A stretch of 46,265 bases of DNA from Methylococcaceae bacterium (GTDB taxonomy: Bacteria > Pseudomonadota > Gammaproteobacteria > Methylococcales > Methylococcaceae): positions 1-46,265 of the forward strand of contig VEPB01000473.1 of the NCBI GenBank assembly GCA_012026715.1, given 5' to 3'. The notes under the pieces are model-generated. The model saw nothing but the letters and a program-made list of their open reading frames with translations, did no database searches and had not been told where the DNA came from. The first letter of the stretch is position 1. Each line of letters starts with the position of its first letter. The position numbers were made by a program, and so were the translations under genes. This document shows positions 265-31,544 of the stretch, piece after piece.

Positions 265-918
265 ATGATGGAGAATCTGAGGTCGGTGAATGTCGGCCCC
301 ATACTGGTATCCGATGACCTCACCGAATACTTTGCCCACCAAATCGCCCGTTCACCCAATAATCTGCTCCGCCATACCCAACGGATTTTCTTCCATTTCG
401 GTAGCGGCGACGAAGAAGGTCTCTATTCGGCCTTGTTGGATCTGTTCATGGCCTTGAAGGAGAAAGGCCGCGCACTGCGTTCCCGCCTCCTGGGCGGCAG
501 CAAGTCGCGACTTTCCACCGAACGTTTCGATGCTCTCGCCCGATTTGTTGCGGAACCGGTCAATGAAACCGAACTCCCACGAGGGACATTGTCAGTGCTA
601 TCGCAGGGACTGACCGGAATCCTTCCGATCGTCAGCGAAGAAAGGGGGCCGGCGGAAAGCAGCCGCGATGTCTTGGTCGAAGCCCGTGAGCACATCGAGT
701 ATTTCCAGCTGGACGAGGCGCGCACCCTATTGGAGAGCGCCTTGCTCGACGATCCGCAACGCGACGATCTGCAGCAGGAACTGCTCGCCCTCTACTTGGC
801 CACCAACGACATGGCCGGATTGCGCGCCACCCGTAACCAGCTCGCCCAATTGCTGGATCCCCTACCCGAGCATTGGCTGGCATTCGACGACCAGCAAGAC
901 GGAGCCGACAACCCATGA
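265..918 (+). CDS. hypothetical protein, first gene of the GTPase/roadblock operon (TPR-like C-terminal helices)
   Basis: Frame of ORF 169..918. ATG at 265 (MMENLRS...) follows GGGGA; GTG 169 is an alternative start. The stop TGA 916-918 overlaps ATG 915 of the next gene (ATGA). I recognise no family. Confidence 0.55.
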   Translation: MMENLRSVNVGPILVSDDLTEYFAHQIARSPNNLLRHTQRIFFHFGSGDEEGLYSALLDLFMALKEKGRALRSRLLGGSKSRLSTERFDALARFVAEPVNETELPRGTLSVLSQGLTGILPIVSEERGPAESSRDVLVEAREHIEYFQLDEARTLLESALLDDPQRDDLQQELLALYLATNDMAGLRATRNQLAQLLDPLPEHWLAFDDQQDGADNP

Positions 919-2129
919 GCCAGAAGCCGTCCGAATCACCCCTGCGCATCGCTGTTCTCGGGATGGATAGCCGTACGGAAAACCTCTTCAGGATGTTCTT
1001 CCGTGGACCCTGCCAGAACCGTGCGATGGTGGTCGGCAGCGAGACCCCGGAAGCGACCCTGATCGACCTGGATGTACCTCAGGGCGCCAAACTGTTCGAG
1101 CAGCACCGCTCCAGATATCCGCAGCAGCCGGTTATCCTGCTGTCCATCAATCCGCCCGCCGAAGCTGACGCGCACACCATACTGGTCAAGAAACCGGCCC
1201 AGGCCCAAGCGATGCTGGCGGCCATCACGCGGACCCAGGAACTGGTCGCCGCGGTGCGACAGCCCAGGTCGGCTGCCCAGGCAGAACCTTCAGCCGAACC
1301 CGAAGAAGCCAAACCCGCCATGAAGGTGGTGACCCGGCCAGTCGCCAACGAGGGCTCGGCACAACGTGCCGCCTCTCTGCTCAACGAGCAGGTTTTCAAG
1401 AGCTATCTGGGCCATCGCGACGATATTGATCCCCAGGATCCCAAGCAGCTGGCCACGCTGTTTTACAACCCCCGAGAATTCCTCCAAGGCCATGTGCATT
1501 CCGCCTGGGAGGTTGCGGTGACCCGCGACCTGCCGACCCGGCTGGAAACGCCCTGGCGATCCATTTCCTTTTTTCCGGACCAGCGGATGATCCACGTCGC
1601 GGCGGATGAGGCACAACTGCGGGCGGTGTGCGGAATACCATTCCGCAACATCGTCAGCATGGACGTCGGCATGGACGGGCGCCAGTCACTCTCCAACGTC
1701 AAGACCATTACCGCCGACGAAGCCAAAAGCTTGCTCGAATCGGAGCACTTGGTATCTCTGGAGTCTTTCCTCTGGAAGATTGCGCTGCTGACCTCCAAAG
1801 GTCGGATCCCCGACGCCGTCGACCCGCTCCGGCCAATCCAGCTCAAACGCTGGCCCAACATGACGCGGATTACCCTGCCGCCTCACGCGATGCGGATCGC
1901 CGCCCTGCTTCACGACAGCCCGATGACGCCGTTCCAGGCTGCGCAACGGCTGGGCATCCGTCAACAGTACGTGTTTGCCTTCTTCAGTGCCGCCTATGCC
2001 CTCGGACTGATCAGCCAACCGGCAGAGGGTGTCCGGCCCGCCACCGCATCGACACAGCCTGCAAACCCTGCAGCCGCCGAGAAAGTGTCGCTGTTCAAGA
2101 AAATCCTCAATCGCCTCAAAATGAGCTGA
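915..2129 (+). CDS. receiver (REC)-like domain protein with Pro/Ala/Glu-rich linker and helical C-terminal region
   Basis: Frame of ORF 873..2129; ATG 915 (MSQKPSE...) overlaps the upstream stop. The N-terminus reads like a CheY-type fold ('RIAVLGMD', 'ATLIDLDVP', 'ILVKKPAQAQAMLAAI'). A low-complexity linker follows ('AAQAEPSAEPEEAKPA'), and the C-terminus has 'MTPFQAAQRLGIRQQYV', a wHTH-like stretch. Confidence 0.7.
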   Translation: MSQKPSESPLRIAVLGMDSRTENLFRMFFRGPCQNRAMVVGSETPEATLIDLDVPQGAKLFEQHRSRYPQQPVILLSINPPAEADAHTILVKKPAQAQAMLAAITRTQELVAAVRQPRSAAQAEPSAEPEEAKPAMKVVTRPVANEGSAQRAASLLNEQVFKSYLGHRDDIDPQDPKQLATLFYNPREFLQGHVHSAWEVAVTRDLPTRLETPWRSISFFPDQRMIHVAADEAQLRAVCGIPFRNIVSMDVGMDGRQSLSNVKTITADEAKSLLESEHLVSLESFLWKIALLTSKGRIPDAVDPLRPIQLKRWPNMTRITLPPHAMRIAALLHDSPMTPFQAAQRLGIRQQYVFAFFSAAYALGLISQPAEGVRPATASTQPANPAAAEKVSLFKKILNRLKMS

Positions 2130-2150
2130 CCTCGAAGGACGCTGACGCCC

Positions 2151-2696
2151 ATGAGCCAGTACAACAAAATCATCTTCACCGGCCCCGTCGGGGCAGGCAA
2201 GACCACCGCTATTGCATCCCTCAGCGACTCGGCTCCCGTCAAGACCGACGCCCGCGCCTCCGATATGACCAAGGAACGCAAGGCGTCAACCACTGTAGCG
2301 CTGGATTACGGGATCATGAACCTGCCAGGAGGCGAGAAGATCCACTTGTACGGAACGCCGGGGCAGGAACGCTTTGATTTCATGTGGGACATTCTCACCA
2401 CCGGAGGGATCGGCCTGGTGCTACTGATGGACAACACCCGCACCGATCCTTTCCAGGACTTGAAGTTCTTCATCGGCAAGTTCCGCGAATTCATCGATCA
2501 GACCAATCTGGTGATCGGCGTCACTCAAATGGATCTGAGCCGTCATCCGCCCCTTGAAGCCTATCACAGCCAAGTGGAGGCACTGGGATTGAAATCGCCG
2601 ATTTTTGAGGTCGATGCGCGCAGCAGAGAGGATGTTTCGATCTTGATCCAGGCGCTGCTTTATTCGCTCGATCCCGAGCTCGAGGAGACCCCGTAA
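2151..2696 (+). CDS. MglA-like / COG2229-type small Ras-superfamily GTPase
   Basis: 181 aa. G1 P-loop 'GPVGAGKT'. G3 is 'LYGTPGQERF', with the Asp of DxxGQ replaced. G4-like 'GVTQMDL'. The size is typical of prokaryotic MglA/CvnD-type GTPases. Confidence 0.85.
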   Translation: MSQYNKIIFTGPVGAGKTTAIASLSDSAPVKTDARASDMTKERKASTTVALDYGIMNLPGGEKIHLYGTPGQERFDFMWDILTTGGIGLVLLMDNTRTDPFQDLKFFIGKFREFIDQTNLVIGVTQMDLSRHPPLEAYHSQVEALGLKSPIFEVDARSREDVSILIQALLYSLDPELEETP

Positions 2697-3325
2697 TGGG
2701 CTATACCCTGGTCGAAAATCTGTTCATTCAGCCTACGCCCGCCGGTTGCTACTACGCCCTGTCGACCCCGGCCAAGTCCCCGGAAAGGCTGCTGCTGCGG
2801 GCTCTGCTGCACCAGAACCCGACTCCGGCACTGGATCTTGATTCGCTTCGTTCGTGGTCGACCCTGGACGATCCCGAACAAGGGCTGTCGCTGCTGCATC
2901 GGGCGCAGTCCTTGCGCTGGGTGCAAGGCTTCCACGAGCCGCGCCAGTGCCCTGATCAACCCCTGGAAACCATCCTGCCACGATTGCTGCACAGTTTCAG
3001 CAATCAGGGCAAAGCCCTGCTCGCGGACCACCAGGGATTTTATCTGGCATCCAGCGGGTTTCCCCACGAAGTGGCAGAAGAGCTGTCCGCGTTGAGCGCC
3101 GATCTGGCCAATCTGCACGAGCGCCGCGTCGGTGTGCTGCAGCACAACATGGGCCTTAACAGCAGCGCCTTCGCCATCGTCGACGCTGCCGGCAACAGTC
3201 GACTGGGCTTTTGGCCACTTTATATCGGAGAACTGCGCTTCGTGCTGGTCATCAATGGCATGCCACATCTGAACCACCCCGATTTCGTCACGCTGACATG
3301 GCTGCTCAGCAGACGTTATACCTGA
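2696..3325 (+). CDS. hypothetical protein with roadblock/LC7-like C-terminal half
   Basis: ATG 2696 overlaps the TAA of the GTPase gene (TAATG). The C-terminal segment 'ALLADHQGFYLASSGFPHEVAEELSALSADLANLHER...AFAIVDAAGN' has the pattern of Robl/LC7 (MglB/MglC-like) domains. This is a by-eye assignment only. Confidence 0.6.
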   Translation: MGYTLVENLFIQPTPAGCYYALSTPAKSPERLLLRALLHQNPTPALDLDSLRSWSTLDDPEQGLSLLHRAQSLRWVQGFHEPRQCPDQPLETILPRLLHSFSNQGKALLADHQGFYLASSGFPHEVAEELSALSADLANLHERRVGVLQHNMGLNSSAFAIVDAAGNSRLGFWPLYIGELRFVLVINGMPHLNHPDFVTLTWLLSRRYT

Positions 3326-3442
3326 GTAGGCCGGCAACCCGGTCTTCGCCAGGCGTTTTTCCGGCACGGGCATCCCGCTCCGGGACCACCGGTGCCCAAC
3401 CCACTCTGCAAATCCACCAACCGAAGAACATGAGGATCTCCA

Positions 3443-3805
3443 ATGCGCGCTGACATGCTTACTTCCATCCTGAACGAACTCAACGGCACCTCCGCCGATA
3501 TTGAGGCCTCCGGCATCATCTCCACCGACGGCTTGATCATGGCCGCGGTTCTGCCGCAAGGGCTGGACGAAGACCGCTTGGGTGCCATGAGCGCCGCCAT
3601 GCTGTCTTTGGGTGACCGGACTTCCCAGGAACTGGCGCGAGGCGGACTGGAACAGGTACTGATCAAGGGCGCCAAGGGATACGTGCTGATGACCTACGCC
3701 GGCAACGAGGCCGTTTTGACCGTCATGGCGAAACCCAACGCCAAGCTTGGACTGATCTTTCTCGACGTCAAGCGGGCCGCCGAAAGCGTTGCCGCACTGA
3801 TTTGA
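3443..3805 (+). CDS. roadblock/LC7 domain protein (MglB/CvnB-like)
   Basis: 120 aa with a GAGGA RBS. 'ASGIISTDGLIMAAVLPQGLDEDRLGAMSAAMLSLGDRTSQEL...VLIKGAKGYVLMTYAGNEAVLTVMA' matches the classic Robl_LC7 pattern. Confidence 0.85.
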   Translation: MRADMLTSILNELNGTSADIEASGIISTDGLIMAAVLPQGLDEDRLGAMSAAMLSLGDRTSQELARGGLEQVLIKGAKGYVLMTYAGNEAVLTVMAKPNAKLGLIFLDVKRAAESVAALI

Positions 3806-3845
3806 CGTCCACGTTGCCAGCCCACCAACGAGACGGTCGACGACC

Positions 3846-4334
3846 ATGGTTATTCACGCCCTCCAAGACATGCTCCCTAGCGATGTAGCCGGGGCTTACC
3901 GCGAATACAACCTGACCTATTTCGACGGCGCTCAGCGGAAGGTATTGGTCGTCGATGAGGAAGTCCCCTACCCGGAAGGCCGTCTCATCGTGTCGCGGAC
4001 CGACCCACAGGGGATCATCACCCACGCCAACCAGTCTTTCGTGGACATGTCAGGATTTACCATGGACGAACTGATCGGCGCGCCCCATTATATCCTGAGG
4101 CATCCGGACATGCCGCCGGTTGCCTTCAAGGGCTTGTGGGACACCCTGGCCCGTGGTGAAACCTGGCAGGGCTACGTCAAAAATCTGCGGAGGGACGGGC
4201 GCTACTACTGGGTCAAGGCAACCGCGATCCCCAACGTCCGCAATGGCCAGGTGGTGGGCTACACCTCGGTACGCCGCAAGCCATCACGGCAGAAAATTGC
4301 CGAGTGCGAAAAGCTGTACCCGACCCTCTTCTAG
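3846..4334 (+). CDS. stand-alone Aer-type (FAD-binding-like) PAS domain protein
   Basis: 162 aa. 'RTDPQGIITHANQSFVDMSGFTMDELIGAPHYILRHPDMPPVAFKGLWDTLARGETWQGYVKNLRRDGRYYWVKATAIP' closely resembles the Aer/MCP N-terminal PAS (RHPDMP...W.G.VKNRRKNGD.YWV). No HAMP, MCP or kinase output domain follows. Confidence 0.85.
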   Translation: MVIHALQDMLPSDVAGAYREYNLTYFDGAQRKVLVVDEEVPYPEGRLIVSRTDPQGIITHANQSFVDMSGFTMDELIGAPHYILRHPDMPPVAFKGLWDTLARGETWQGYVKNLRRDGRYYWVKATAIPNVRNGQVVGYTSVRRKPSRQKIAECEKLYPTLF

Positions 4335-4352
4335 GCTGTCCGGAGCTTCCCC

Positions 4353-5099
4353 ATGACTTTCCAATTCACCGTGAGCCCGGACTTTACCCCGGATCACCTG
4401 TCGGGCTGGTACATCTTCAACACCTGGCTGCAGAAGGCGGTCGACCTGCACATCCACCTCCACATCTACGACGATTTCCATCAGCAGCGGGATGCCATTC
4501 AGAACGACAAGGTCGACCTGATCTATGCCAACCCCTTCGACGCCGCCATGCTGGTGCGCGAAAAGGGCTTCCGGGCACTGGCCCGACCCGCCGGCAAGGC
4601 CGATGAGGCCTTGGTCTGTGTCGGTGAATCCAGCCCCGTTCAAAAAGTTGAGGACCTGCAGCCTGGCACCCGCCTGGCCACCACCGACGATCCGGACGTC
4701 CATCTGATGGGCATGATCATGCTGGAACCCGCCAACCTCGGCAAAGAAAACATCACCATGGTTCCCTGCGACACCTATGTGCTGGTGGCCAAGGAGCTGA
4801 TCAAGGGAACCAGCGACGTGGGCATCTTCCTGCAGGAGGCCTATCACGACCTCAGCTCCATCATCCGCCGCCAGCTGCGGGTGCTGGTAAGCGGCCAGAT
4901 CCAACTGGTGCACCACTGTCTCATGGTTGGCCCCAACCTCCATCCCCATCGGGACAAGCTGCTTCAGGCCCTGCTCACCATGGGAGATGATCCCAAAGGC
5001 CCTGGCGTGCTGGAAGCTTTGAAGTTCCCTCACTGGGAAGCGGTCGACGAGGAGGAGATGGAGTTCATGATCGACCTGATGGATACCCTCAACACCTGA
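4353..5099 (+). CDS. PhnD/SsuA-like type-2 periplasmic-binding-protein-fold protein lacking a signal peptide
   Basis: 248 aa with a GGAG RBS 8 nt upstream. 'KVDLIYANPFDAAMLVREKGFRALARP' is typical of PhnD-like substrate-binding domains. The N-terminus 'MTFQFTVSPDF' has no hydrophobic leader. Confidence 0.7.
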   Translation: MTFQFTVSPDFTPDHLSGWYIFNTWLQKAVDLHIHLHIYDDFHQQRDAIQNDKVDLIYANPFDAAMLVREKGFRALARPAGKADEALVCVGESSPVQKVEDLQPGTRLATTDDPDVHLMGMIMLEPANLGKENITMVPCDTYVLVAKELIKGTSDVGIFLQEAYHDLSSIIRRQLRVLVSGQIQLVHHCLMVGPNLHPHRDKLLQALLTMGDDPKGPGVLEALKFPHWEAVDEEEMEFMIDLMDTLNT

Positions 5100-12710: not shown

Positions 12711-12797
12711 GCCTTGGGAAGCAGCGCGATCCACCAATTACCTCCCCCTACCCTTGGGCGGCTCCTCGACGCAACCGCCCGACGCTCCCCGTCCCCG

Positions 12798-15575
12798 ATG
12801 CCGTCTAAACCTTTTCCGACGCCGCGCTTCCAGGTCGGCATCGATCTCGGGACCACGAATACGGTGGTCGCTTACAGTGAGCTGACTCCATCCCCGGTCA
12901 TCGAGCTTTTTCCGATCGAGCAGTTGGTTGGCCCAGGGCAAACGGCGGCCCGCCCTTCCCTTCCCTCCACCCGCTACCACCCGGCAGCTGACGAACTCCC
13001 GGAAAGCGACGTGTCCTTACCGTGGGAGCGCGGCGCGGGAGGAACGCAAACCGTGCTGGGGGAATACGCACGGGTTTTAGGCAGCAAGTCGCCGGCCCGG
13101 CAAGTCAACAGCGCCAAGAGTTGGCTGTGCCACCGCAACGTCGACCGGCTCGCGCCCATCCTGCCGTGGAATGCGCCGGAGGGAATTCCCAGGGTATCGC
13201 CAGTGGAAGCCTCGGCTTCCTATCTCGACCATGCCCGCCAAGCCTGGAACCAGCGCTATCCCGACGATCCGCTGGAACACCAGGACATCGTGTTGACCGT
13301 CCCCGCCTCCTTCGAAACCCTGGCGCGCCAGCGCACCGAGGAAGCCGCCAGGCGTGCCGGCCTCACCCGCATCCGCCTGCTGGAAGAACCGCAATCCGCT
13401 TGCTACCACTGGCTTTGGCAGCACCGCCGAACGATTGCGGAAGAACTGGCGGGGTGCCGTACCCTGCTGGTGATCGACATCGGCGGAGGCACCACGGACT
13501 TCTCCCTGGTGCAGATCCGCCACGAAGGGGCCGGGATTCACGAACTCAACCGGATCGCCGTCGGAGATCACCTGATGCTAGGCGGGGACAACATCGATCT
13601 CGCCCTCGCTCACCTGGCCGAAGGTCGACTGCAGGGCGAAGCGGCCTCCTTGTCGGCAGGACAGTTCGCCGAACTGCTAAGCCAATGCCGCACGGCCAAG
13701 GAAGCGCTGCTCCGAGCCGATGCTTCCGCAAGCCACCCGGTAACGCTGCTGGGAAGCGGCCATCGGCTGATCGGTGCCAGTCGCACGGTCCAACTCAGCG
13801 CCAAGGAAGTAGCCGAACTGGTGCTGGACGGCTTCTTCCCCAACATCACCCCGGAAGACCTACCAGCCCGCAAACGCAGCGCCGTCGTCGAATTCGGGCT
13901 GCCCTACGCCGCCGATCCCGCCATTACCAAACACATTGCCGCCTTTCTGAAGCAGCATCGCGAGACCATCGCCGGTTCCGGCGGCGGCAACCCGATCCCG
14001 GATGCGGTCCTGCTCAACGGCGGGCTGTTCCTTAGCTCGCTGTTGGCCGCTCGCGTGCTCGACATCCTCGCGCGCTGGCGCGGCCATCCGCTGAAACAGC
14101 TGCGCAACGACCATCCCGAGTTTGCCGTCGCCTTTGGCGCGGTAGCCTATGGATTGGCCCAGCGGGGATTGCTCGGGGAAAAAATCCGCAGCAGCGCCGC
14201 CCGCAGCTATTTCCTGCTGTTGGAACCCAATGCCGACGATGCCAAAGGCGTCTGCCTGCTCCCCAAGGGATCGGAGGCGGAATCCGAACAGGTACTGGCC
14301 GACCATGTGTTTGCGTTGAGTTTGGGACGGCCGGTCAGTTTCCGCCTCGTCAGCACCAACGATGAAACGGCTTATCGGCTGGGCCAGGTGGTCGCCGTCG
14401 ACCCTGAACGGTTCAGTCCGCTGCCGCCGCTGACCCTGGCCCTGCAGGCCACAGGCGACTGCGAAGCCACGGTGCGCCTGGCCGCCACGATCACCGAACT
14501 GGGCGACCTCAAGGTCCAGTGTATCGAACAGGCCGAACCCGCCCGGCATTGGGAACTGCTGTTCCAGCTGGAAACGGACTCCGTCGCCCCGCTTCCGAGT
14601 TCCGGCAGCCAACCGCTCGTCGACGAAGCCGCGGTCTTGATCGGGATGGTTTTCGGCAAAAAAAGCAAGACCGTTGATCCCAAGCGGGTGAAGAGCCTCC
14701 GCACCGATCTGGAAAAGCGGTTCGGCAAGCGCGCCGACTGGCCCCTGCCGGTGCTGCGGGGACAGTTTGATGCCTTGATGCAAGGAGCTGGATTCCGCCG
14801 GCGTTCCGCGGATCACGAAAAGCTCTGGCTCAATCTGGCCGGATATTGCCTGAGGCCCGGACATGGCGCCCCGCTGGACGAATGGCGCATCGATCAGCTT
14901 TGGCCGATTTACGCCCAAGGCATTCAACACGTGGGCGACGCCCAAGTCTGGTCCGAATGGTGGACCCTCTGGCGGCGCGCCGCCGCCGGACTGGATGCCG
15001 AAGCCCAACAGCGCCTGTTTGCCGATCTCGCCCCCTACATCGCCCCCAAGGCGGCCAAACGCGGCAAGACCGGAGAATTGGCCCGCAAGCGGGGCTACGA
15101 GGATATGCTGCGGCTGGCCGGCAGCCTGGAACGGCTACCGGCCGCGACCAAAACCGAGTTGGGCGACTGGCTGCTGCAACGGCTGGCCAAGCCCGGCGAA
15201 CCTGAGGTGTCCTGGTGGTCGCTGGGTCGCGTCGGTACCCGGATGCCGCTTTATGGCAGCGCCCATGAGGTGGTCGCGGCCGCGACCGCGGAACGATGGC
15301 TGCAGGATCTGCTGCCGCTGGATTGGAAAAAGACCGCCGCCGCCGGATTTGGCGCCGCCCTGATCGCCCGCATGTCGGGCGACCGCGCGCGCGACATCGA
15401 GGACAGCCTGCGGAAGGCGGTGATCGGGAAACTGCAGGACAGCAAATGCCCCCGCAGCTGGCTCGACATGGTGAACCGGGTGGCCGAACTGACCGAAACC
15501 GACGTCCGCCAGGCTTACGGCGAAGCCTTGCCGGCGGGACTTCGGCTGCTGCCTCCGCAATCCCGGCAAGCCTGA
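12798..15575 (+). CDS. large Hsp70/actin-fold ATPase family protein with ~500-aa non-canonical C-terminal extension
   Basis: ATG 12798 (MPSKPFPTPRFQVGIDLGTTNTVVAY), about 925 aa. Hsp70 phosphate-1 'GIDLGTTNT' and phosphate-2 'LVIDIGGGTTDFSLV' are present, plus 'AVLLNGGLF'. I could not find a canonical DnaK substrate-binding domain or an EEVD tail. Confidence 0.85.
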   Translation: MPSKPFPTPRFQVGIDLGTTNTVVAYSELTPSPVIELFPIEQLVGPGQTAARPSLPSTRYHPAADELPESDVSLPWERGAGGTQTVLGEYARVLGSKSPARQVNSAKSWLCHRNVDRLAPILPWNAPEGIPRVSPVEASASYLDHARQAWNQRYPDDPLEHQDIVLTVPASFETLARQRTEEAARRAGLTRIRLLEEPQSACYHWLWQHRRTIAEELAGCRTLLVIDIGGGTTDFSLVQIRHEGAGIHELNRIAVGDHLMLGGDNIDLALAHLAEGRLQGEAASLSAGQFAELLSQCRTAKEALLRADASASHPVTLLGSGHRLIGASRTVQLSAKEVAELVLDGFFPNITPEDLPARKRSAVVEFGLPYAADPAITKHIAAFLKQHRETIAGSGGGNPIPDAVLLNGGLFLSSLLAARVLDILARWRGHPLKQLRNDHPEFAVAFGAVAYGLAQRGLLGEKIRSSAARSYFLLLEPNADDAKGVCLLPKGSEAESEQVLADHVFALSLGRPVSFRLVSTNDETAYRLGQVVAVDPERFSPLPPLTLALQATGDCEATVRLAATITELGDLKVQCIEQAEPARHWELLFQLETDSVAPLPSSGSQPLVDEAAVLIGMVFGKKSKTVDPKRVKSLRTDLEKRFGKRADWPLPVLRGQFDALMQGAGFRRRSADHEKLWLNLAGYCLRPGHGAPLDEWRIDQLWPIYAQGIQHVGDAQVWSEWWTLWRRAAAGLDAEAQQRLFADLAPYIAPKAAKRGKTGELARKRGYEDMLRLAGSLERLPAATKTELGDWLLQRLAKPGEPEVSWWSLGRVGTRMPLYGSAHEVVAAATAERWLQDLLPLDWKKTAAAGFGAALIARMSGDRARDIEDSLRKAVIGKLQDSKCPRSWLDMVNRVAELTETDVRQAYGEALPAGLRLLPPQSRQA

Positions 15576-15598: not shown

Positions 15599-17548
15599 TC
15601 AGTGGGTGGAAGCCGTCTCCCCCACCCGGGCCGCGATGCCGTAGTGGGCGATCTTCTTGTACAGCGTGGAGCGGGTGATGCCGAGGATGCGGGCGGAGCG
15701 GGTGATGTTGCCGTTGCAGGCGGTCAGGGTCGCTTCAATCACCTCCGACTCCCATTCCGCGAGGGATCGCAAAGGCTCCGGTGCCGGCCGGCCCGAATCA
15801 GGTGGCGGCAGGCTGAACCGCGTTCCGGCAGGCATTGATTCCAACTCGTCAAAAAAATCCTGCGGCAGGTCCTCCAGCCGGATGTGGACCGCGTCCGTCA
15901 GCGGCAACGAACTACGGATGACGTTGGACAATTGCCTGACATTCCCTGGCCACGGATGCCGCAGAAACAGCTCCTTCACCTCATCGGCCAGCCGAATGCC
16001 GCTTGCCAGCCCGGCCGCTTCCAGCTCCCGCCGCAAGATGCCGTCGATGACATCCGCCTTGTCCTCGCGTTCCCGCAACGGCGGCAAGGTCAGCTGCGCC
16101 CCGTTGAGTCGGTAGTAGAGGTCGCGCCGGAACCGGCCCGCGCGGACCGCCTCCTGGATCGGCACGTTGGTGGCGGCGAAGATCTGTACGTCGACCTTCA
16201 CCGGACGGTTCGCGCCGATGGGGAAGAATTCCGAATTTTCCAGAACCCGAAGCAGGACGGCCTGCAAGTCCAGGCTCATATCGCCGATCTCGCCGAGGAA
16301 CAGGACCCCCTTGTCGGCCAGCAGAAATTTGCCCGGCTTGCCTTCCCGGCTGGCCCCGGTGAAGCTACCCCCGGCATAGCCGAACAACTCACTATCGATC
16401 AACTCGCGCGGCAGCGAGGCGCAGTTGAGGGCAATGAACGGACCGGACCGGCGTGGGCCGGCCTCGTAAGCCCGCCGAACCAGATATTCCTTGCCGGCGC
16501 CGGACTCGCCCATCACCAGGACTGGGATGCGGCGCTGCTGATAGCGTACCGCCCGTTCCAGCAACACCTCCGCGACCGCCGGCCGCTGAGCGCTCACCTG
16601 AACCTGACGCACATAGGCCACGCGCGACTGCCCCGCGAGCGCCGCCTGCGCCGAATTGCCCCCATCATCCTGTCCACGCGGCTCCAGCAGCGACGCCAGG
16701 GCAGCTGCACGTCCTCCCGGCGATTCGCCGGCATCGCGGGGCACGGCGAGCATGCGATGCTCCGCATCGCCCAGAAGAGGTCCGTCGCCTTGGCGGGCTG
16801 TCCCATCGTGACCGCAAGCCGAGCGCACTCGTACTGGCCGGGCTTGAGAGAAACCGCATTTGAGCAACCCCTCCTCGACGCGGGATCCCACCATGCACAT
16901 GAGGAACTTGAGCAAGCCTGGGCTGATCTCGCGGTCGCTGAGCAGACCGACCACGGCGATCAAACGGCCGTCCTCGGCGAAGACGGGATAGCCGGCGGTG
17001 GCGTAAGGATGCAGCAACGGCAAGTAGTGCTCTTCGCCACAGAAGGCGATGGGGGCGCCAGTTACGGCGGCGGAACCGACACCATTGTTACCGATCACCG
17101 CCTCGCTCCAATCGGCGTCGCCAGCGCGCAGCTGGAGCGCCGCCGGGCAGTGGCGCAGGGCTTCGCCCCGCCGACTCAGCAAGCGGCAACGGGCATCCGC
17201 AAGACATAGGGTGAGACCGGACGCGGGCGCCAGGTCGGCACCCACCTGATCGAGCAAAGTCTCTAAGCCATGCAGACGGGAGCGGTCATGATCCGGAGCG
17301 GCGAATACCAGCCGCCGTAACGCCGCCATTCGGTCCGCCAACTTAAATGACAGCGGGTAATCCTCCAGACAGCGTTGCCAGGAGGTTGCCACTTCGCCGC
17401 GCACCCAGTCGTCAGGCGCCGGCACCTGCAGCGTCTGGTGCATCCATTCCCACGCCTGGCGTGGACGGTAGAGCGGAGCAACGGTATCGTCGGAATCTCC
17501 CGGCAGGGTTGAGGCCGACCGAGGATCGGCTGAAACATCGGTAGTCAT
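15599..17548 (-). CDS. sigma-54-dependent transcriptional activator (AcoR-like: N-terminal domain + GAF-like + AAA+ + Fis HTH)
   Basis: ATG at 17548 (MTTDVSADPR). Walker A 'GESGAGKE', 'GSFTGA' (GAFTGA variant), 'GVLFLGEIGDM' and a C-terminal 'NITRSARILGITRSTLYKKI'. The GAF-like 'IGNNGVGSAAVTGAPIAFCGEEHY' is typical of AcoR-type regulators, not NifA. Confidence 0.9.
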   Translation of the reverse strand: MTTDVSADPRSASTLPGDSDDTVAPLYRPRQAWEWMHQTLQVPAPDDWVRGEVATSWQRCLEDYPLSFKLADRMAALRRLVFAAPDHDRSRLHGLETLLDQVGADLAPASGLTLCLADARCRLLSRRGEALRHCPAALQLRAGDADWSEAVIGNNGVGSAAVTGAPIAFCGEEHYLPLLHPYATAGYPVFAEDGRLIAVVGLLSDREISPGLLKFLMCMVGSRVEEGLLKCGFSQARPVRVRSACGHDGTARQGDGPLLGDAEHRMLAVPRDAGESPGGRAAALASLLEPRGQDDGGNSAQAALAGQSRVAYVRQVQVSAQRPAVAEVLLERAVRYQQRRIPVLVMGESGAGKEYLVRRAYEAGPRRSGPFIALNCASLPRELIDSELFGYAGGSFTGASREGKPGKFLLADKGVLFLGEIGDMSLDLQAVLLRVLENSEFFPIGANRPVKVDVQIFAATNVPIQEAVRAGRFRRDLYYRLNGAQLTLPPLREREDKADVIDGILRRELEAAGLASGIRLADEVKELFLRHPWPGNVRQLSNVIRSSLPLTDAVHIRLEDLPQDFFDELESMPAGTRFSLPPPDSGRPAPEPLRSLAEWESEVIEATLTACNGNITRSARILGITRSTLYKKIAHYGIAARVGETASTH

Positions 17549-17944
17549 CGGTATGGGAATTCCCTGATTGGCGCAGCATCGAGCCGCAGCATTCAAACGC
17601 CCATAACCTCTCATTCGCCGCCAGAGAGCCGCGGCTTGGTGGCCGAACACCGGGGACTCCGGTGGGCCTTATTGTGTCGGGAAAAGTTAGTTTTCGCGGG
17701 ATCTTAAGACAATGCGTCATATTGCCGCATAACCACTGCGGCTTCCGTAACTTGGTGCGGTTTTGCAATCCCTTGCGATTGGCTACAATGCTCGCCCGGA
17801 GCCGCGGAGCGTGACCCCACCCTCCCATCCGCAGGCCGCCTACCCGGCCTTCGCCAACGTGCCAGTCGTCCTCGGACGGCGCTGAAGCGCCGCTCCAGTA
17901 ATCGCCGGACCCACCGACACCCACAGTAAATCCTAAGGAGTTCC

Positions 17945-23927: not shown

Positions 23928-24245
23928 ATGATACCGCCCATCCGCTCCATCGTCCCCGGCGTCCTGATCGCCGCGGCGATCGTCCCGCTGCCGGCGGCGG
24001 CCGCCCGGCCCGCCCCGGCCACCTTGGCGCTGGGATGTTCCGGTTGCCACGGCACCGGCGGAAAACCCCAGGGCATCACCCCCGTCCTGGCCGGCAAGCC
24101 CGAGGGCGAGTTGCTGCGGAGCCTGCGCGACTTCAAGTCCGGCCGCCGCAAGTCTTCCATCATGAACCGCATCGCCGCCGGCTACCAGGATTCCGACCTG
24201 GTGGAATTGGCTCACCATTTTGCCACCGGGGGTAGCGAGCCATGA
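23928..24245 (+). CDS. fccA: monohaem cytochrome c subunit of flavocytochrome c sulfide dehydrogenase (FccA/SoxE-like)
   Basis: 105 aa. It has a signal peptide and a single 'CSGCHG' haem-binding site. The stop overlaps the ATG of the flavoprotein gene (ATGA). Confidence 0.8.
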   Translation: MIPPIRSIVPGVLIAAAIVPLPAAAARPAPATLALGCSGCHGTGGKPQGITPVLAGKPEGELLRSLRDFKSGRRKSSIMNRIAAGYQDSDLVELAHHFATGGSEP

Positions 24246-25507
24246 TGGACCGGCGCCGATTTCTCGCAGGACTGGCCGCAGCCGGCGCCGGGACCCTGGC
24301 GGGCTGCTCCTTCAACCCGCTGAACTGGGGCAACGCCAAGGTGGTGGTGATCGGCGGCGGCTACGGCGGCGCGACGGCCGCCAAATACCTCAAGCTGCTC
24401 GATCCTTCGCTCGACGTGACCCTGGTCGACAAGCGCAACAGCCACCTGTCCTGCCCCGGTTCCAACGAGGTGCTGGCGGGCTGGCGCGAGCTGGAATCGC
24501 TGCACCGCGACTTCCGGCGGCTGCGCAAAGCCTATGATATCCGGGTGATCCAGGCCGAAGTGGAGGCCATCGACGGGGTCAAACGCCGGGTCCGGCTGAA
24601 CACCAAGGATAAGCTGGAGTATGACCGGCTGGTGATCTCGCCGGGCATCGATTTCCGCTGGAAGGCCATCGACGGCTACGGTCGCGCCGCCAGCCTCAAG
24701 GCGCCCCACGCCTGGATCGCGGGGGAGCAGACCAAGCTGCTGCACAAACAGCTGAAGGCCATGGACGACGGCGGCGTCGTCCTGATCACCGCGCCCGCCA
24801 ACCCTTATCGCTGTCCGCCGGGGCCCTACGAGCGCGCCTCTCTCATCGCCGCCTATTTGAAGCGCTACAAGCCGCGTTCCAAGGTCATCATCCTCGACGC
24901 CAAGACCCAGTTCTCCAAACAAAAGCTCTTCCTCAAAGGTTGGCAGGAACTTTATCCGGGCATGGTGGAATGGGTGTCGTCCGAAAAGGAAGGGCAGATC
25001 GATCACGTCGATGTGATCCGCAAGATCGTCCAAACCGAGTTCAACGAACACCGCGCCAACGTGCTCAACATCATTCCCCCGCAGCGGGCGGCATCGATCG
25101 CCAGCAAGGCCGGCCTGACCGATGCCAGCGGTTGGTGTCCGGTCGACCCCGCCAATTTTGCCTCCACCCGAGTGCCCCACATCCACGTGATCGGCGACGC
25201 CTGCATCGCCACGCCCATGCCCAAGTCCGCCTTCGCCGCCAACTCCCAAGCCAAAGTCTGCGCCCGCGCCATCGTGGAGGACTTGCAGGAGCGCGATCCT
25301 GGCCCGCCGTCACTGGTCAACCATTGCTACAGTTTTCTGGCGCCCGACTACGCCATTTCCATCAGCGGCATCTACGAACTGGGCCGCAAGGGCCACGAAC
25401 TGATGGCGACAGCGACCGGCGAGACCCCCTTGGACGCGGACCGCCGCCAGGAAGCCCGCTTCGCCCGGGATTGGCAGACCAACATCCGGGCGGATACCTT
25501 CGAGTAA
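24242..25507 (+). CDS. fccB: flavocytochrome c sulfide dehydrogenase flavoprotein subunit (FccB/SoxF-like)
   Basis: 421 aa. Tat leader 'MMDRRRFLAGLAAAGAG', FAD fold 'VVVIGGGYGGATAAKYLK', 'PYRCPPGPYERA' and 'IHVIGDA'. Confidence 0.9.
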   Translation: MMDRRRFLAGLAAAGAGTLAGCSFNPLNWGNAKVVVIGGGYGGATAAKYLKLLDPSLDVTLVDKRNSHLSCPGSNEVLAGWRELESLHRDFRRLRKAYDIRVIQAEVEAIDGVKRRVRLNTKDKLEYDRLVISPGIDFRWKAIDGYGRAASLKAPHAWIAGEQTKLLHKQLKAMDDGGVVLITAPANPYRCPPGPYERASLIAAYLKRYKPRSKVIILDAKTQFSKQKLFLKGWQELYPGMVEWVSSEKEGQIDHVDVIRKIVQTEFNEHRANVLNIIPPQRAASIASKAGLTDASGWCPVDPANFASTRVPHIHVIGDACIATPMPKSAFAANSQAKVCARAIVEDLQERDPGPPSLVNHCYSFLAPDYAISISGIYELGRKGHELMATATGETPLDADRRQEARFARDWQTNIRADTFE

Positions 25508-27506: not shown

Positions 27507-27519
27507 AAGCCGAAAGCGA

Positions 27520-27535
27520 TGTCACGTTTACAACA
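27520..27535. promoter_or_regulatory. NifA-type UAS 2 upstream of nifB
   Basis: TGTCACGTTTACAACA = TGT-N10-ACA, centred about 54 bp upstream of the -24 GG. Confidence 0.55.
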
Positions 27536-27579
27536 GCCCGACAACCAAGACTTCTTCGATAACTCAATACCTTATGGCG

Positions 27580-27595
27580 TGGCACACATGCTGCT
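27580..27595 (+). promoter_or_regulatory. sigma-54 (-24/-12) promoter of the nifB operon
   Basis: TGGCAC-acatg-CTGCT with canonical GG-N10-GC spacing, about 45 nt upstream of ATG 27639. Confidence 0.8.
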
Positions 27596-27638
27596 ATCCA
27601 GCACAGTGAGAAACCCAATACCAGCGAGGTTGCCCATC

Positions 27639-29129
27639 ATGGAATTGCCCGTCTTGAATGCCCATCAGCCCGCAGCGGCGAAAGGGGGCTGCAGCGCCTC
27701 CTCCTGCGGCTCCACCGACGACCAGGTCAACCAACTCCCGGACCACATCCGCGAGAAGGTGCAGAACCACCCCTGTTATTCCGAGGACGCCCACCACTAT
27801 TTTGCGCGGATGCACGTGGCGGTGGCCCCGGCCTGCAACATCCAGTGCCACTACTGCAACCGCAAATACGATTGCGCCAACGAATCCCGACCCGGCGTGG
27901 TTTCGGAACTGCTGACACCGGAACAGGCGGTGAAGAAGACCATGGCGGTGGCCGCCACCATCCCGCAGATGACCGTGCTGGGCATCGCCGGCCCCGGCGA
28001 CCCCCTCGCCAACCCGGAACGCACCTTCGCCACCTTCCGCATGCTCACCGAGCAGGCGCCCGACATCAAGCTGTGCGTGTCCACCAACGGCCTGTCCCTG
28101 CCCGAATCGGTGGAAGAGCTGTCCAAGGCCAACATCGACCACGTCACCATCACCATCAACACCGTGGACGCCGAGATCGGCGCCCAGATCTATCCCTGGA
28201 TCTTCTGGAAGAACCGCCGCATCAAGGGCAAGAAAGGCGCCCAGATCCTCATCGACCAGCAGCAGAAGGGGCTGGAGATGCTGGTGGCGAAGGGCATCCT
28301 GGTCAAGGTCAATTCCGTGATGATCCCCGGCATCAACGACCAGCACCTGGCGGAAGTCAGCAAGATCGTCAAGTCCAAGGGCGCCTTTCTGCACAACGTC
28401 ATGCCGCTGATCGCCGAAGCCGAGCACGGCACCTTCTACGGGGTCATGGGACAGCGCGGTCCCAGTCCGGACGAGTTGATGGACCTGCAGGAAGCTTGCT
28501 CCGGCGACATGAACATGATGCGCCACTGCCGCCAGTGCCGTGCCGACGCGGTGGGCCTTCTGGGCGAAGACCGCGGCTCCGAGTTCACCCTGGACAAGAT
28601 CGACGCCATGGAAATCGACTACGCCGCCGCCATGGAAATGCGCAAGCAGGTGCACGAAGGCATCCTCTCCGACATGGAGGAAAAGCGCGCAGCCCAGGCT
28701 GCCAAGTCCAAGCCCAAGGTTCCCGCGGGCACCCGCCCGGTGCTGATGGCCGTCGCCACCACCGGCCAGAGCCTGATCAACCAGCACTTTGGCCACGCCA
28801 AGGAGTTCCAGATCTACCAGGCGTCGCCGGAAGGCGTGAAGTTCATGAGCCATCGCAAGACCGATCAATACTGCTCCGGCGATTCCACCTGCGGCGAGGC
28901 TGAATCGGCGCTGGCGCGCACCATCCGCTCCCTGGAGGGCTGCGAGGCGGTGCTGTGTTCCAAGATCGGCTACGAGCCCTGGGACCTGCTGGAACAGGCC
29001 GGCATCATGCCCAATGGCGAGCACGCCATGGAGAACATCGAGGATGCTGTGATGGCGGTCTACCTGGAAATGCTGGCGGCCGGCAAGCTGGCCGAAGAGC
29101 CGGAAAAGAAACAGCGGGCAAATGCGTGA
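27639..29129 (+). CDS. nifB: nitrogenase FeMo-cofactor biosynthesis radical-SAM protein NifB
   Basis: ATG 27639 (MELPVLNAH...) with a GAGG RBS 9 nt upstream, 496 aa. Radical-SAM 'CNIQCHYCNRKYDC', 'GIAGPGDPLAN', 'HVTITINT' and a C-terminal NifX-like domain ('INQHFGHAKEFQIY'). The track start 27519 would place the promoter and UAS inside the CDS, so I reject it. Confidence 0.96.
   Translation: MELPVLNAHQPAAAKGGCSASSCGSTDDQVNQLPDHIREKVQNHPCYSEDAHHYFARMHVAVAPACNIQCHYCNRKYDCANESRPGVVSELLTPEQAVKKTMAVAATIPQMTVLGIAGPGDPLANPERTFATFRMLTEQAPDIKLCVSTNGLSLPESVEELSKANIDHVTITINTVDAEIGAQIYPWIFWKNRRIKGKKGAQILIDQQQKGLEMLVAKGILVKVNSVMIPGINDQHLAEVSKIVKSKGAFLHNVMPLIAEAEHGTFYGVMGQRGPSPDELMDLQEACSGDMNMMRHCRQCRADAVGLLGEDRGSEFTLDKIDAMEIDYAAAMEMRKQVHEGILSDMEEKRAAQAAKSKPKVPAGTRPVLMAVATTGQSLINQHFGHAKEFQIYQASPEGVKFMSHRKTDQYCSGDSTCGEAESALARTIRSLEGCEAVLCSKIGYEPWDLLEQAGIMPNGEHAMENIEDAVMAVYLEMLAAGKLAEEPEKKQRANA

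Positions 29130-29938: not shown

Positions 29939-29948
<10 letters not shown>
29514..29948 (+). CDS. ArsC/Spx-family nitrogenase-associated protein (NifO-like)
   Basis: 144 aa starting 4 nt after the fdxN stop. 'FWEKPGCINNTRQKQLLRDAGH...' and 'DPLLVRRPLMQVG' match the ArsC-fold pattern seen in nitrogenase-associated proteins. Confidence 0.8.

Positions 29949-31544
<1,596 letters not shown>

Follow-up and report, generated by a model that had tools for sequence, protein, structure and literature searches.

A Group 3 MglA-family GTPase gene cluster in methanotrophs with a probable sensory extension

Prokaryotic homologs of the small GTPase MglA have been divided into five groups by comparative genomics (Wuichet & Søgaard-Andersen, Genome Biol Evol 2014/2015, PMC4316618). 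Group 1 MglA carries the G3 motif TVPGQ and an intrinsic Arg finger beside the G2 Thr, whereas in Groups 2-5 the motif is GTPGQ and the Arg finger is replaced by a Thr (PMC4316618). In Groups 2 and 3, the G4 motif lacks Lys and G5 reads DAR, with NxFD as the G4 of the Group 2 conservons (PMC4316618). Group 3, which includes Neisseria NMB0476, is nearly exclusive to beta- and gammaproteobacteria, and in its gene neighborhood a protein designated DUF, with a REC-like N terminus, a variable linker and a winged helix-turn-helix (wHTH) C terminus, is followed by MglA and one or two MglB proteins (PMC4316618). Two methanotroph loci, MEALZ_2464 of Methylomicrobium alcaliphilum and Metme_1347 of Methylomonas methanica, are tabulated as Group 3 with the order DUF>MglA>MglB>MglB and GTPases of 178/179 amino acids (aa) (table S2 of PMC4316618). 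Here we analyze a cluster of seven genes, numbered g1 to g7 from 5' to 3' across positions 265-5099 of contig VEPB01000473.1 of an uncultured Methylococcales member; the contig as a whole, 46,265 nucleotides (nt) in length, is termed the window. Judged by motifs and gene order, the g2-g5 core is a Group 3 MglA system, and the entire cluster is probably a Group 3 MglA-family GTPase switch equipped with a lineage-specific sensory add-on.

One basis of the class assignment is g3 (2151-2696; like all genes of the cluster, on the + strand), which encodes a 181-aa small GTPase. Its motifs in the ortholog alignment are GPVGAGKT as G1 (2181-2204), T47-T48 as G2, GTPGQ as G3 (2352-2366), TQMD as G4 (2523-2534) and VDAR as G5 (2610-2621). 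The sequence YGTPGQ (aa 67-72) is invariant in 12 orthologs and found in 121 of the 175 sequences of a representative alignment. The 150 nearest cluster representatives carry the same set of motifs, with G4 as T[QHR]xD and G5 as [VI]DAR in relatives. In S46-T47-T48-V49 there is no intrinsic Arg finger, and the TTV triplet is conserved among the representatives. The position of Ras Asp57 is taken by Gly68, as opposed to Thr in Myxococcus MglA. A first-pass annotation of the window had noted a GTPGQ motif without the canonical Asp, which is correct, and had likened this position to MglA-type GTPases, which does not hold for Gly68.

In profile searches, g3 matched PF03029 (2.5e-11) and Ras (1e-7) in Pfam and no housekeeping GTPase family, with no signal for Era, EngB or FtsY; a housekeeping role was rejected on this basis, and the grouping with Era, EngB or SRP that would have spoken against the first-pass reading was not seen. 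The JGI label "SRP receptor beta" reflects the generic small-GTPase fold. The best matches to sequences in the PDB were Rab proteins (5e-6), and Thermus MglA (1.2e-4) matched less well than Rab31. The nearest named relatives belong to Methylococcaceae and Candidatus Methylumidiphilus (83-84% identity). Orthologs from Methylotuvimicrobium and Methylomonas are 72-77% identical to g3 and equal in size to the tabulated 178/179 aa. Judged by size, taxon and gene order, MEALZ_2464 and Metme_1347 appear to be orthologous to g3.

All seven open reading frames (ORFs) are present across 265-5099 where the first-pass annotation had placed them, and its description of tightly packed genes on one strand was reproduced when the coordinates and junctions were re-read. 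The end of g1 (918) and the start of g2 (915) form an ATGA overlap, and g3 and g4 share base 2696 in a TAATG overlap; the remaining gaps measure 21 nt (g2-g3), 117 nt (g4-g5), 40 nt (g5-g6) and 18 nt (g6-g7). In a consensus scan, the intergenic gaps were free of terminator-like sites, the sole one on the + strand lying within g3, and a single promoter-like site was located between g7 and adk. Domain searches and structure prediction agree with the product list of that annotation, namely a TPR-like protein, a REC-like protein, a GTPase, two roadblock proteins, an Aer-type PAS protein and a PhnD-like protein.

To assess conservation, one genome per species was scanned. At least 559 stretches encode a g3 relative, and the best 80 loci were kept with flanks of 7 kb. 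In 58 of these 80 related loci, g1-g7 are collinear on one strand, among them loci of Methylobacter, Methylomonas, Methylovulum, Methylocaldum, Methylotuvimicrobium, Crenothrix, endosymbionts of mussels and snails, Thiothrix and Thiolinea; contig ends interrupt a further seven. The gene order is thus conserved well outside this genome, so that the restriction to one genome that would have spoken against the first-pass reading was not seen, and the association of the genes is far beyond chance. When the ORFs of the 80 loci were clustered, only the seven cluster families were conserved, each flanking family occurring in 13 loci at most. Median identities are highest for g5 (84%, over 75 loci), followed by g3 (72%), g6 (66%), g7 (61%), g4 (54%), g1 (34%, detected in 67 of the 80 loci) and g2 (33%).

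Two further gene orders were observed. One metagenome contig (L084) has g5-g6-g7-g1-g2-g3-g4, and Methylophagaceae have g1-g4-g5-g6-g7-g2'-g2-g3 with two g2 paralogs. The genes g5, g6 and g7 are contiguous in all three orders. This pattern is our strongest argument for counting the PAS and PhnD-like proteins as functional parts of the system whose action lies close to the canonical roadblock protein. Within the canonical order, insertions are tolerated only between g4 and g5, where five of the 58 collinear loci have 0.4-4 kb of extra DNA. As to the rearranged loci themselves, the gene next after the rotated cluster of L084 (4640-5518) encodes a GAF and HD-domain protein, a possible cyclic-nucleotide phosphodiesterase seen in this single instance. 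In Methylophagaceae, the roadblock-PAS-PhnD block has been relocated upstream, and in one such locus (L072, 2789-5202) tandem g2 paralogs of 399 and 387 aa, each approximately 26% identical to g2, precede the GTPase gene.

The agreement of the core with Group 3 extends to taxonomic range, gene order, GTPase size (178-181 aa), the G3, G2, G4 and G5 motifs (GTPGQ, Thr-Thr, no Lys in G4, and DAR) and the neighborhood. Because g2-g5 fit this description and methanotroph loci are included in the published table, the core has already been catalogued (PMC4316618). The first-pass annotation had suggested that the cluster may be an uncharacterized GTPase switch: the logic of a GTPase combined with roadblock proteins stands, and novelty does not apply to the core. 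By contrast, the extension by g1, g6 and g7 appears to be undescribed. The published Group 3 description comprises four core genes, to which the methanotroph cluster adds a TPR-like protein, an Aer-type PAS protein and a cytoplasmic PhnD-like protein; it also differs in that the first MglB (g4) has an extra N-terminal domain and in that the DUF (g2) keeps the receiver Asp, Ser and Lys-Pro residues and terminates in a basic amphipathic helix. Our literature searches, by locus tags and by combinations of roadblock, PAS and methanotroph, found no study of the cluster or of the TPR-like, Aer-PAS and PhnD-like partners and, apart from a study of mglB in Snodgrassella, no experiments on Group 3 systems.

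The 404-aa product of g2 (915-2129), of which an exact copy is on record as P0415, corresponds in its arrangement of REC-like domain, linker, middle domain, wHTH and terminal helix to the DUF of Group 3 MglA systems. It matched no Pfam or NCBIfam family; PF00072 was not matched by the window protein at E<=1 and matched two of 57 g2 homologs with E of approximately 0.04. In an AlphaFold2 model (pLDDT 84.9), a compact alpha/beta domain at aa 10-115 (942-1259; b1 a1 b2 b3 a3 b4 b5 a5) is followed by a disordered Pro/Ala/Glu linker (aa 121-147) and then the middle domain. Foldseek searches of the PDB with the N-terminal domain found the receivers of DrrB, MicA, KdpE and NtrC1 (E from 2e-4, probability 1.0, TM about 0.6, normalized to the target), and the top 20 matches were receiver domains throughout. 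The earlier description of g2 as a REC-like protein with a Pro/Ala/Glu-rich linker agrees with these predictions. The lowest identity among the 57 homologs is 22%, and all of them share D51, K93 and P94; S77 is conserved in at least 90%. These residues (D51, S77 and K93-P94) lie at the ends of model strands 47-51 (b3), 73-77 (b4) and 88-92 (b5), and the phospho-acceptor geometry is thus retained in g2. The domain lacks helices a2 and a4, and a single acidic residue, D18, follows b1.

Toward the C terminus of g2, a winged-helix-like region at about aa 308-367 (1836-2015) contains model helices 325-334, 339-346 and 350-362, and weak C-terminal HTH matches among the 57 members were to MarR_2 in eight, HTH_20 in six and HTH_29 in three. 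The protein ends in a basic amphipathic helix, VSLFKKILNRLKM (2085-2123; modeled helix 393-403). The hydrophobic moment of these last 11-13 residues is 0.70, the 98.7th percentile within the protein, at a net charge of +3, and the median hydrophobic moment across the 57 homologs is 0.67. From its sequence, the helix is a possible membrane- or partner-binding element. The most distant g2 homolog, P0510 (24% identity), adjoins an EamA transporter gene, and its available 3-kb piece of DNA contains no GTPase gene.

Downstream of g3 are two roadblock genes. The 120-aa product of g5 (3443-3805), the second MglB of the system, is a canonical roadblock/LC7 protein (Robl_LC7, PF03259; 4.6e-16, 58.8 bits against a cutoff of 23). 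Its PDB matches include a Thorarchaeota roadblock (7f8m, 2.5e-24), CvnB5 (2e-10) and MglB (about 1e-3), and it carries an Asp-Gly pair (STDGL) as is typical of MglB proteins coupled to MglA of Groups 2-5 (PMC4316618). The assignment of g4 (2696-3325; 209 aa) is less direct. The roadblock half fell below significance by sequence (PF03259 E=0.067, 13.4 bits against the cutoff of 23), an ortholog profile found CvnB5 alone among PDB sequences (E=0.44), and hhalign of the g4 ortholog profile with the g5 profile gave nothing (Prob 0.25), both profiles being shallow (Neff 2.7 and 1.7). An AlphaFold2 model built with 40 homologs is confident (pLDDT 90.5). It comprises a b-4a-b N-terminal domain with a winged-helix-like look (aa 10-79, 2723-2932) and a C-terminal roadblock/LC7 domain (aa 90-208, 2963-3319) of the a-b-b-a-b-b-b-a type, with helices 90-99, 124-152 and 195-208 and strands 107-111, 116-120, 159-162, 168-177 and 180-187.

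Foldseek gave 22 matches of g4 with E<=1e-3, all of them to structures of roadblock, MglB, LAMTOR/Rag-Ragulator or dynein LC7 proteins, including LAMTOR, LC7, the MglB structures 6hjm, 6izw and 1j3w and, as the best match, the Streptomyces roadblock 3kye. Since the sequence and profile matches are marginal, the roadblock call for g4 relies on predicted structure; g4 corresponds to the divergent MglB that comes first in Group 3 systems. The two roadblock folds proposed earlier for 2696-3325 and 3443-3805 are thus recovered, one by structure prediction and the other by a family profile. As an observation on g5 itself, its matches to Asgard roadblocks (7f8m, and Prometheoarchaeum Roadblock3, 9jue, at 4e-18) are far better than those to MglB or CvnB5; judged by sequence, the Asgard roadblocks that are discussed as eukaryote-like may be closely related to bacterial proteins of Group 3 systems.

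The three accessory genes differ in how well they can be classified. The product of g1 (265-918; 217 aa) is helical and has two TPR-like repeats in its C-terminal part; translation could start at GTG 169, ATG 265 or ATG 268. No family model was matched by g1, which gave only sub-threshold TPR matches (TPR_19 E=0.002); TPR_19/TPR_14 matches below threshold occur at the same C-terminal site in eight of ten orthologs, and one exceeds the Pfam cutoff. The product of g6 (3846-4334; 162 aa) is a stand-alone Aer-type PAS protein with a 38-aa N-terminal extension. It matched PAS_3 (1e-16), the PAS domain of E. coli Aer (8dik, 8e-38) over aa 39-161 (123 residues), the FAD-PAS of MmoS (3ewk, 2e-25) and the PAS of NifL (4e-11). 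In the alignment with Aer PAS, the RHPDMP and VKN…YWV segments are intact; residues within the RHPDMP and the N/W-containing segments of Aer are those that we take to contact FAD. From this homology, g6 probably binds FAD. It has neither the HAMP nor the chemoreceptor module of Aer.

The 248-aa product of g7 (4353-5099) is a leaderless protein with a PhnD-family binding-protein fold. The Phosphonate-bd profile (PF12974; 4.5e-41, 141 bits) matches over its full length from residue 5, which leaves no room for a signal peptide. Against TIGR01098, the score was 26.6 with a cutoff of 112. An ortholog profile reached PtxB (5.7e-6), ArrX (2.9e-4) and PhnD (6e-3) in the PDB. ArrX and AioX are PhnD-family sensor proteins that signal to histidine kinases; g7 differs from them in being cytoplasmic and in having no Ser/Thr oxyanion segment. 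In PtxB, the Ser/Thr-rich segment reads drAstsSshLi and aligns with tddP..dvrll of g7, where T111-D-D-P-D-V is conserved (T111, P114 and V116 invariant, D113 and D115 conserved in at least 90%). This replacement speaks against a ligand of the phosph(on)ate type. In the ORF clustering of the 80 loci, no gene for an ABC permease or ATPase was conserved near g7. Neither g6 nor g7 is fused to its presumed partner. A precedent for linking a gas or redox sensor to a roadblock domain is the globin-roadblock protein HGbRL of Methylacidiphilum (PMC4476040).

Several further observations concern relatives of the GTPase and roadblock genes. Fusions of the GTPase with g2 had been expected; the long relatives found are instead Ser/Thr-kinase-GTPase and GTPase-roadblock fusions. 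In P0123 and P0129 (489-501 aa), a GTPase domain 58% identical to g3 lies behind a Ser/Thr kinase domain (Pkinase, 1e-35), an arrangement that recalls Roco/LRRK logic, and P0205, a near relative of g3, is a GTPase-roadblock fusion. Some Crenothrix, Methylobacter and Methylomonas assemblies contain a g3-like GTPase (67-70% identity; L058, L068 and L070) without adjacent roadblock, PAS or PhnD genes, two of them with a g2-like gene upstream of the GTPase; they may represent a reduced second system of paralogs. For Methylomonas methanica, table S2 of PMC4316618 also lists a second locus, Metme_2245, as the orphan pair <MglB<MglB without a GTPase. Methanotrophs may thus possess additional roadblock pairs outside the main cluster, like the orphan mglB-3 of Snodgrassella.

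How might such a switch work? In the mechanism that we propose, g4 and g5 would pair as roadblock proteins, bind g3 and determine how fast it hydrolyzes GTP, after the model of the GTPase-activating proteins (GAPs) MglB and MfpD, and the GTPase-roadblock fusion P0205 agrees with such an action. The g2 protein would be a GTPase partner, either an exchange factor or scaffold comparable to RomR-RomX or an effector; its terminal helix may anchor it at the membrane, and it may be phosphorylated on Asp51 by an unlinked kinase. No cognate kinase for g2 is encoded nearby. g6 would report redox or energy state via its flavin, g7 would bind a small ligand, probably not a phosphonate-type oxyanion, and g1 could serve as an adaptor. 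Because g6 and g7 always travel together with g5, they probably act through it and would replace the histidine-kinase-like sensor of conservons. The inputs of a Group 3 switch may thus come from a redox sensor of the flavin type and from a protein that binds a ligand. The co-conservation of g6 and g7 with the core supports the earlier suggestion that redox or ligand sensing is connected to the switch, and that a signal is fed into it is our inference. A more specific version, in which g6 and g7 dock on a heterodimeric g4:g5 GAP so that a Ras-like GTPase is switched directly by redox, without a kinase and with g2 as membrane-held exchange factor or effector, is speculative and in our judgment rather unlikely.

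For the output, type IV pilus-dependent surface behavior or pilus expression is our tentative first guess. Neisseria, Acinetobacter, Dichelobacter, Xanthomonas and Stenotrophomonas are known for twitching. All are listed as carrying Group 3 systems (PMC4316618), and in Snodgrassella a point mutation in an orphan third mglB altered flares in soft agar and gut colonization, which the authors read as altered type IV pilus-dependent motility (PMC11112851); our guess follows from these two points. Next comes general transcriptional control through the wHTH of g2, as suggested in PMC4316618, which we consider possible and place somewhat lower.

A number of points weigh against the interpretation of the cluster as a Group 3 switch with sensory inputs. 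Among the 80 loci, six with sufficient flank carry g1-g5 with no g6 or g7 nearby, including Thiodiazotropha and a Thiohalomonadales member, so the sensors are dispensable or encoded elsewhere there. g4 does not have the Asp-Gly pair of coupled MglB proteins and has D-x-Q-G instead. The match of the g2 wHTH to DNA-binding families is weak, and its third helix is unusually hydrophobic. The case for FAD binding by g6 is drawn from homology. The pilus link comes from one indirect study in a distant betaproteobacterium together with a phyletic impression, and the mechanism beyond the fold assignments is inferred throughout.

The first-pass annotation had seen in the cluster the logic of either Myxococcus MglA/MglB or the actinobacterial CvnB/C/D conservons. 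The combination of GTPase and roadblock proteins is indeed common to all, and the motifs and partners correspond to neither Group 1 MglA nor a conservon. With the Myxococcus xanthus module (MglA, the GAP MglB, MglC, RomR-RomX and RomY), the cluster shares a roadblock-regulated Ras-like GTPase without the G3 Asp, a partner with a receiver and a Pro-rich linker, and two different roadblock proteins per system. It differs in having GTPGQ and Thr-Thr in place of the Group 1 TVPGQ and Arg finger. The sequence similarity of g3 to MglA is no better than that to Rab proteins, and Gly68, the Thr-Thr G2 and the weak match to Thermus MglA led us to rule out a Myxococcus-type (Group 1) MglA. In contrast to the cluster, the Myxococcus partners are not encoded beside mglA (PMC4316618), and the module has no PAS or binding-protein partners. 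A RomX- or RomY-like gene is not evident in the cluster, no search aimed at them having been made. With the conservons or mfp operon (CvnA-D; MfpB/C/D/E; Group 2), the cluster has in common an operon of a PF03029-type GTPase, a roadblock protein and a sensor with the GTPase as proposed output, a G4 without Lys and DAR as G5. The conservon operons encode a histidine-kinase-like protein, CvnA, and a DUF742 protein (CvnC/MfpC), neither of which occurs in the cluster; the G4 is TQMD as opposed to NxFD, and the sensors of the cluster (flavin-type PAS and binding-protein fold) are soluble. Profile searches found no kinase or DUF742 match in the seven products or the 57 g2 homologs, and the earlier observation that the cluster has no histidine kinase applies to the genes beside it as well. 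According to a 2026 preprint, MfpD is a GAP and MfpC a guanine nucleotide exchange factor in conservons, and MfpC is exclusive to Actinobacteria. In view of this and of the lack of a Pfam signal across 57 homologs, we dropped g2 or the g4 N terminus as candidates for DUF742/CvnC.

These comparisons bear on three other explanations. A transplanted conservon-type (Group 2, Cvn/Mfp) system, in which the PAS and PhnD-like proteins replace CvnA and g2 or the g4 N-terminal domain replaces CvnC, would account for PF03029 as the best Pfam family of g3, for the G5 DAR shared with Group 2, for the closer match of g5 to CvnB5 than to MglB and for a Streptomyces roadblock as the best fold match of g4; with no histidine-kinase-like gene in or beside the cluster, no DUF742 match, an MfpC reported from Actinobacteria only, T[QHR]xD instead of NxFD and a different gene order, we consider it very unlikely. 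It is also improbable that the cluster consists of two unrelated neighboring units, with the GTPase/roadblock operon (g1-g4 or g1-g5) independent of a PAS/phosphonate-binding pair for sensing or uptake. The biggest gap (117 nt) does fall at the g4/g5 junction, where extra DNA is found in five collinear loci, g6 and g7 are not nearby in six loci, and Group 3 elsewhere is tabulated as DUF, MglA and MglB alone (PMC4316618). On the other hand, g6 and g7 stay with g5 and the remaining genes across three gene orders, and g7 has no signal peptide, no conserved ABC permease or ATPase partner nearby and acidic residues in place of its oxyanion-binding segment.

The third explanation concerns location. 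The fimV gene is real (FimV_N, 2.5e-41) and starts 5 kb downstream of the cluster, and the first-pass annotation had considered this proximity meaningful and had tentatively linked the switch to pilus function through it. A FimV-coupled polarity module that places or regulates type IV pili with the polar landmark FimV, like MglA/MglB/RomR of Myxococcus, would fit the control of polarity and pili by Group 1 MglA, the hint of pilus-dependent motility from the Snodgrassella Group 3 data (PMC11112851), the TPR-like motif of g1 and the possible membrane-binding helix at the end of g2. Synteny across the 80 loci gives this no support, however. The adk-leuCDB-asd block adjoins the cluster in no other locus; leuC occurs in none of the 80 with their 7-kb flanks, and adk occurs once, approximately 6 kb upstream of the GTPase gene in L058, never adjacent downstream. 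With no flanking family conserved, the closeness of the cluster to fimV is best regarded as incidental. Furthermore, g3 lacks the Group 1 hallmarks TVPGQ and Arg finger and matches MglA in the PDB no better than Rab proteins. A resemblance of the C-terminal motif of g1 to the cytoplasmic TPR motifs of FimV was dropped, as BLASTP against the FimV of the window found nothing. We thus regard coupling to FimV as unlikely, and the claims based on location are not upheld; on the separate grounds of the Snodgrassella data (PMC11112851), the Group 3 switch may still be linked to type IV pili.

Other genes of the window were noted in passing. Directly downstream of fimV, positions 12714-15575 encode a 953-aa protein that combines a partial Hsp70/actin-like ATPase region with a DUF3731 "DnaK-related" domain (1e-100) at its C terminus, followed by a divergently oriented gene for a sigma-54 activator (15599-17650). 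Genes for a flavocytochrome c sulfide dehydrogenase flavoprotein (24242-25507), a NifB-like radical-SAM/FeMo-cofactor protein (27519-29129) and a flavodiiron-type protein (29939-31243) suggest a diazotrophic methanotroph able to handle sulfide.

In conclusion, Group 3 MglA systems occur in many beta- and gammaproteobacteria and were catalogued ten years ago. The cluster of methanotrophs and Thiothrix described here offers candidate inputs in its own operon, together with their travelling partner, the canonical roadblock g5. These candidates can be addressed experimentally in the genetically tractable Methylotuvimicrobium or Methylomonas. The cluster extends the theme of roadblock platforms that couple sensors to small GTPases, as in the eukaryotic Rag/Ragulator system and in conservons. 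If a GTPase switched directly by redox were confirmed, an MglA-family switch of Proteobacteria would for the first time have a defined input, and nutrient and redox sensing via roadblock platforms such as Ragulator-Rag would have a counterpart in bacteria.

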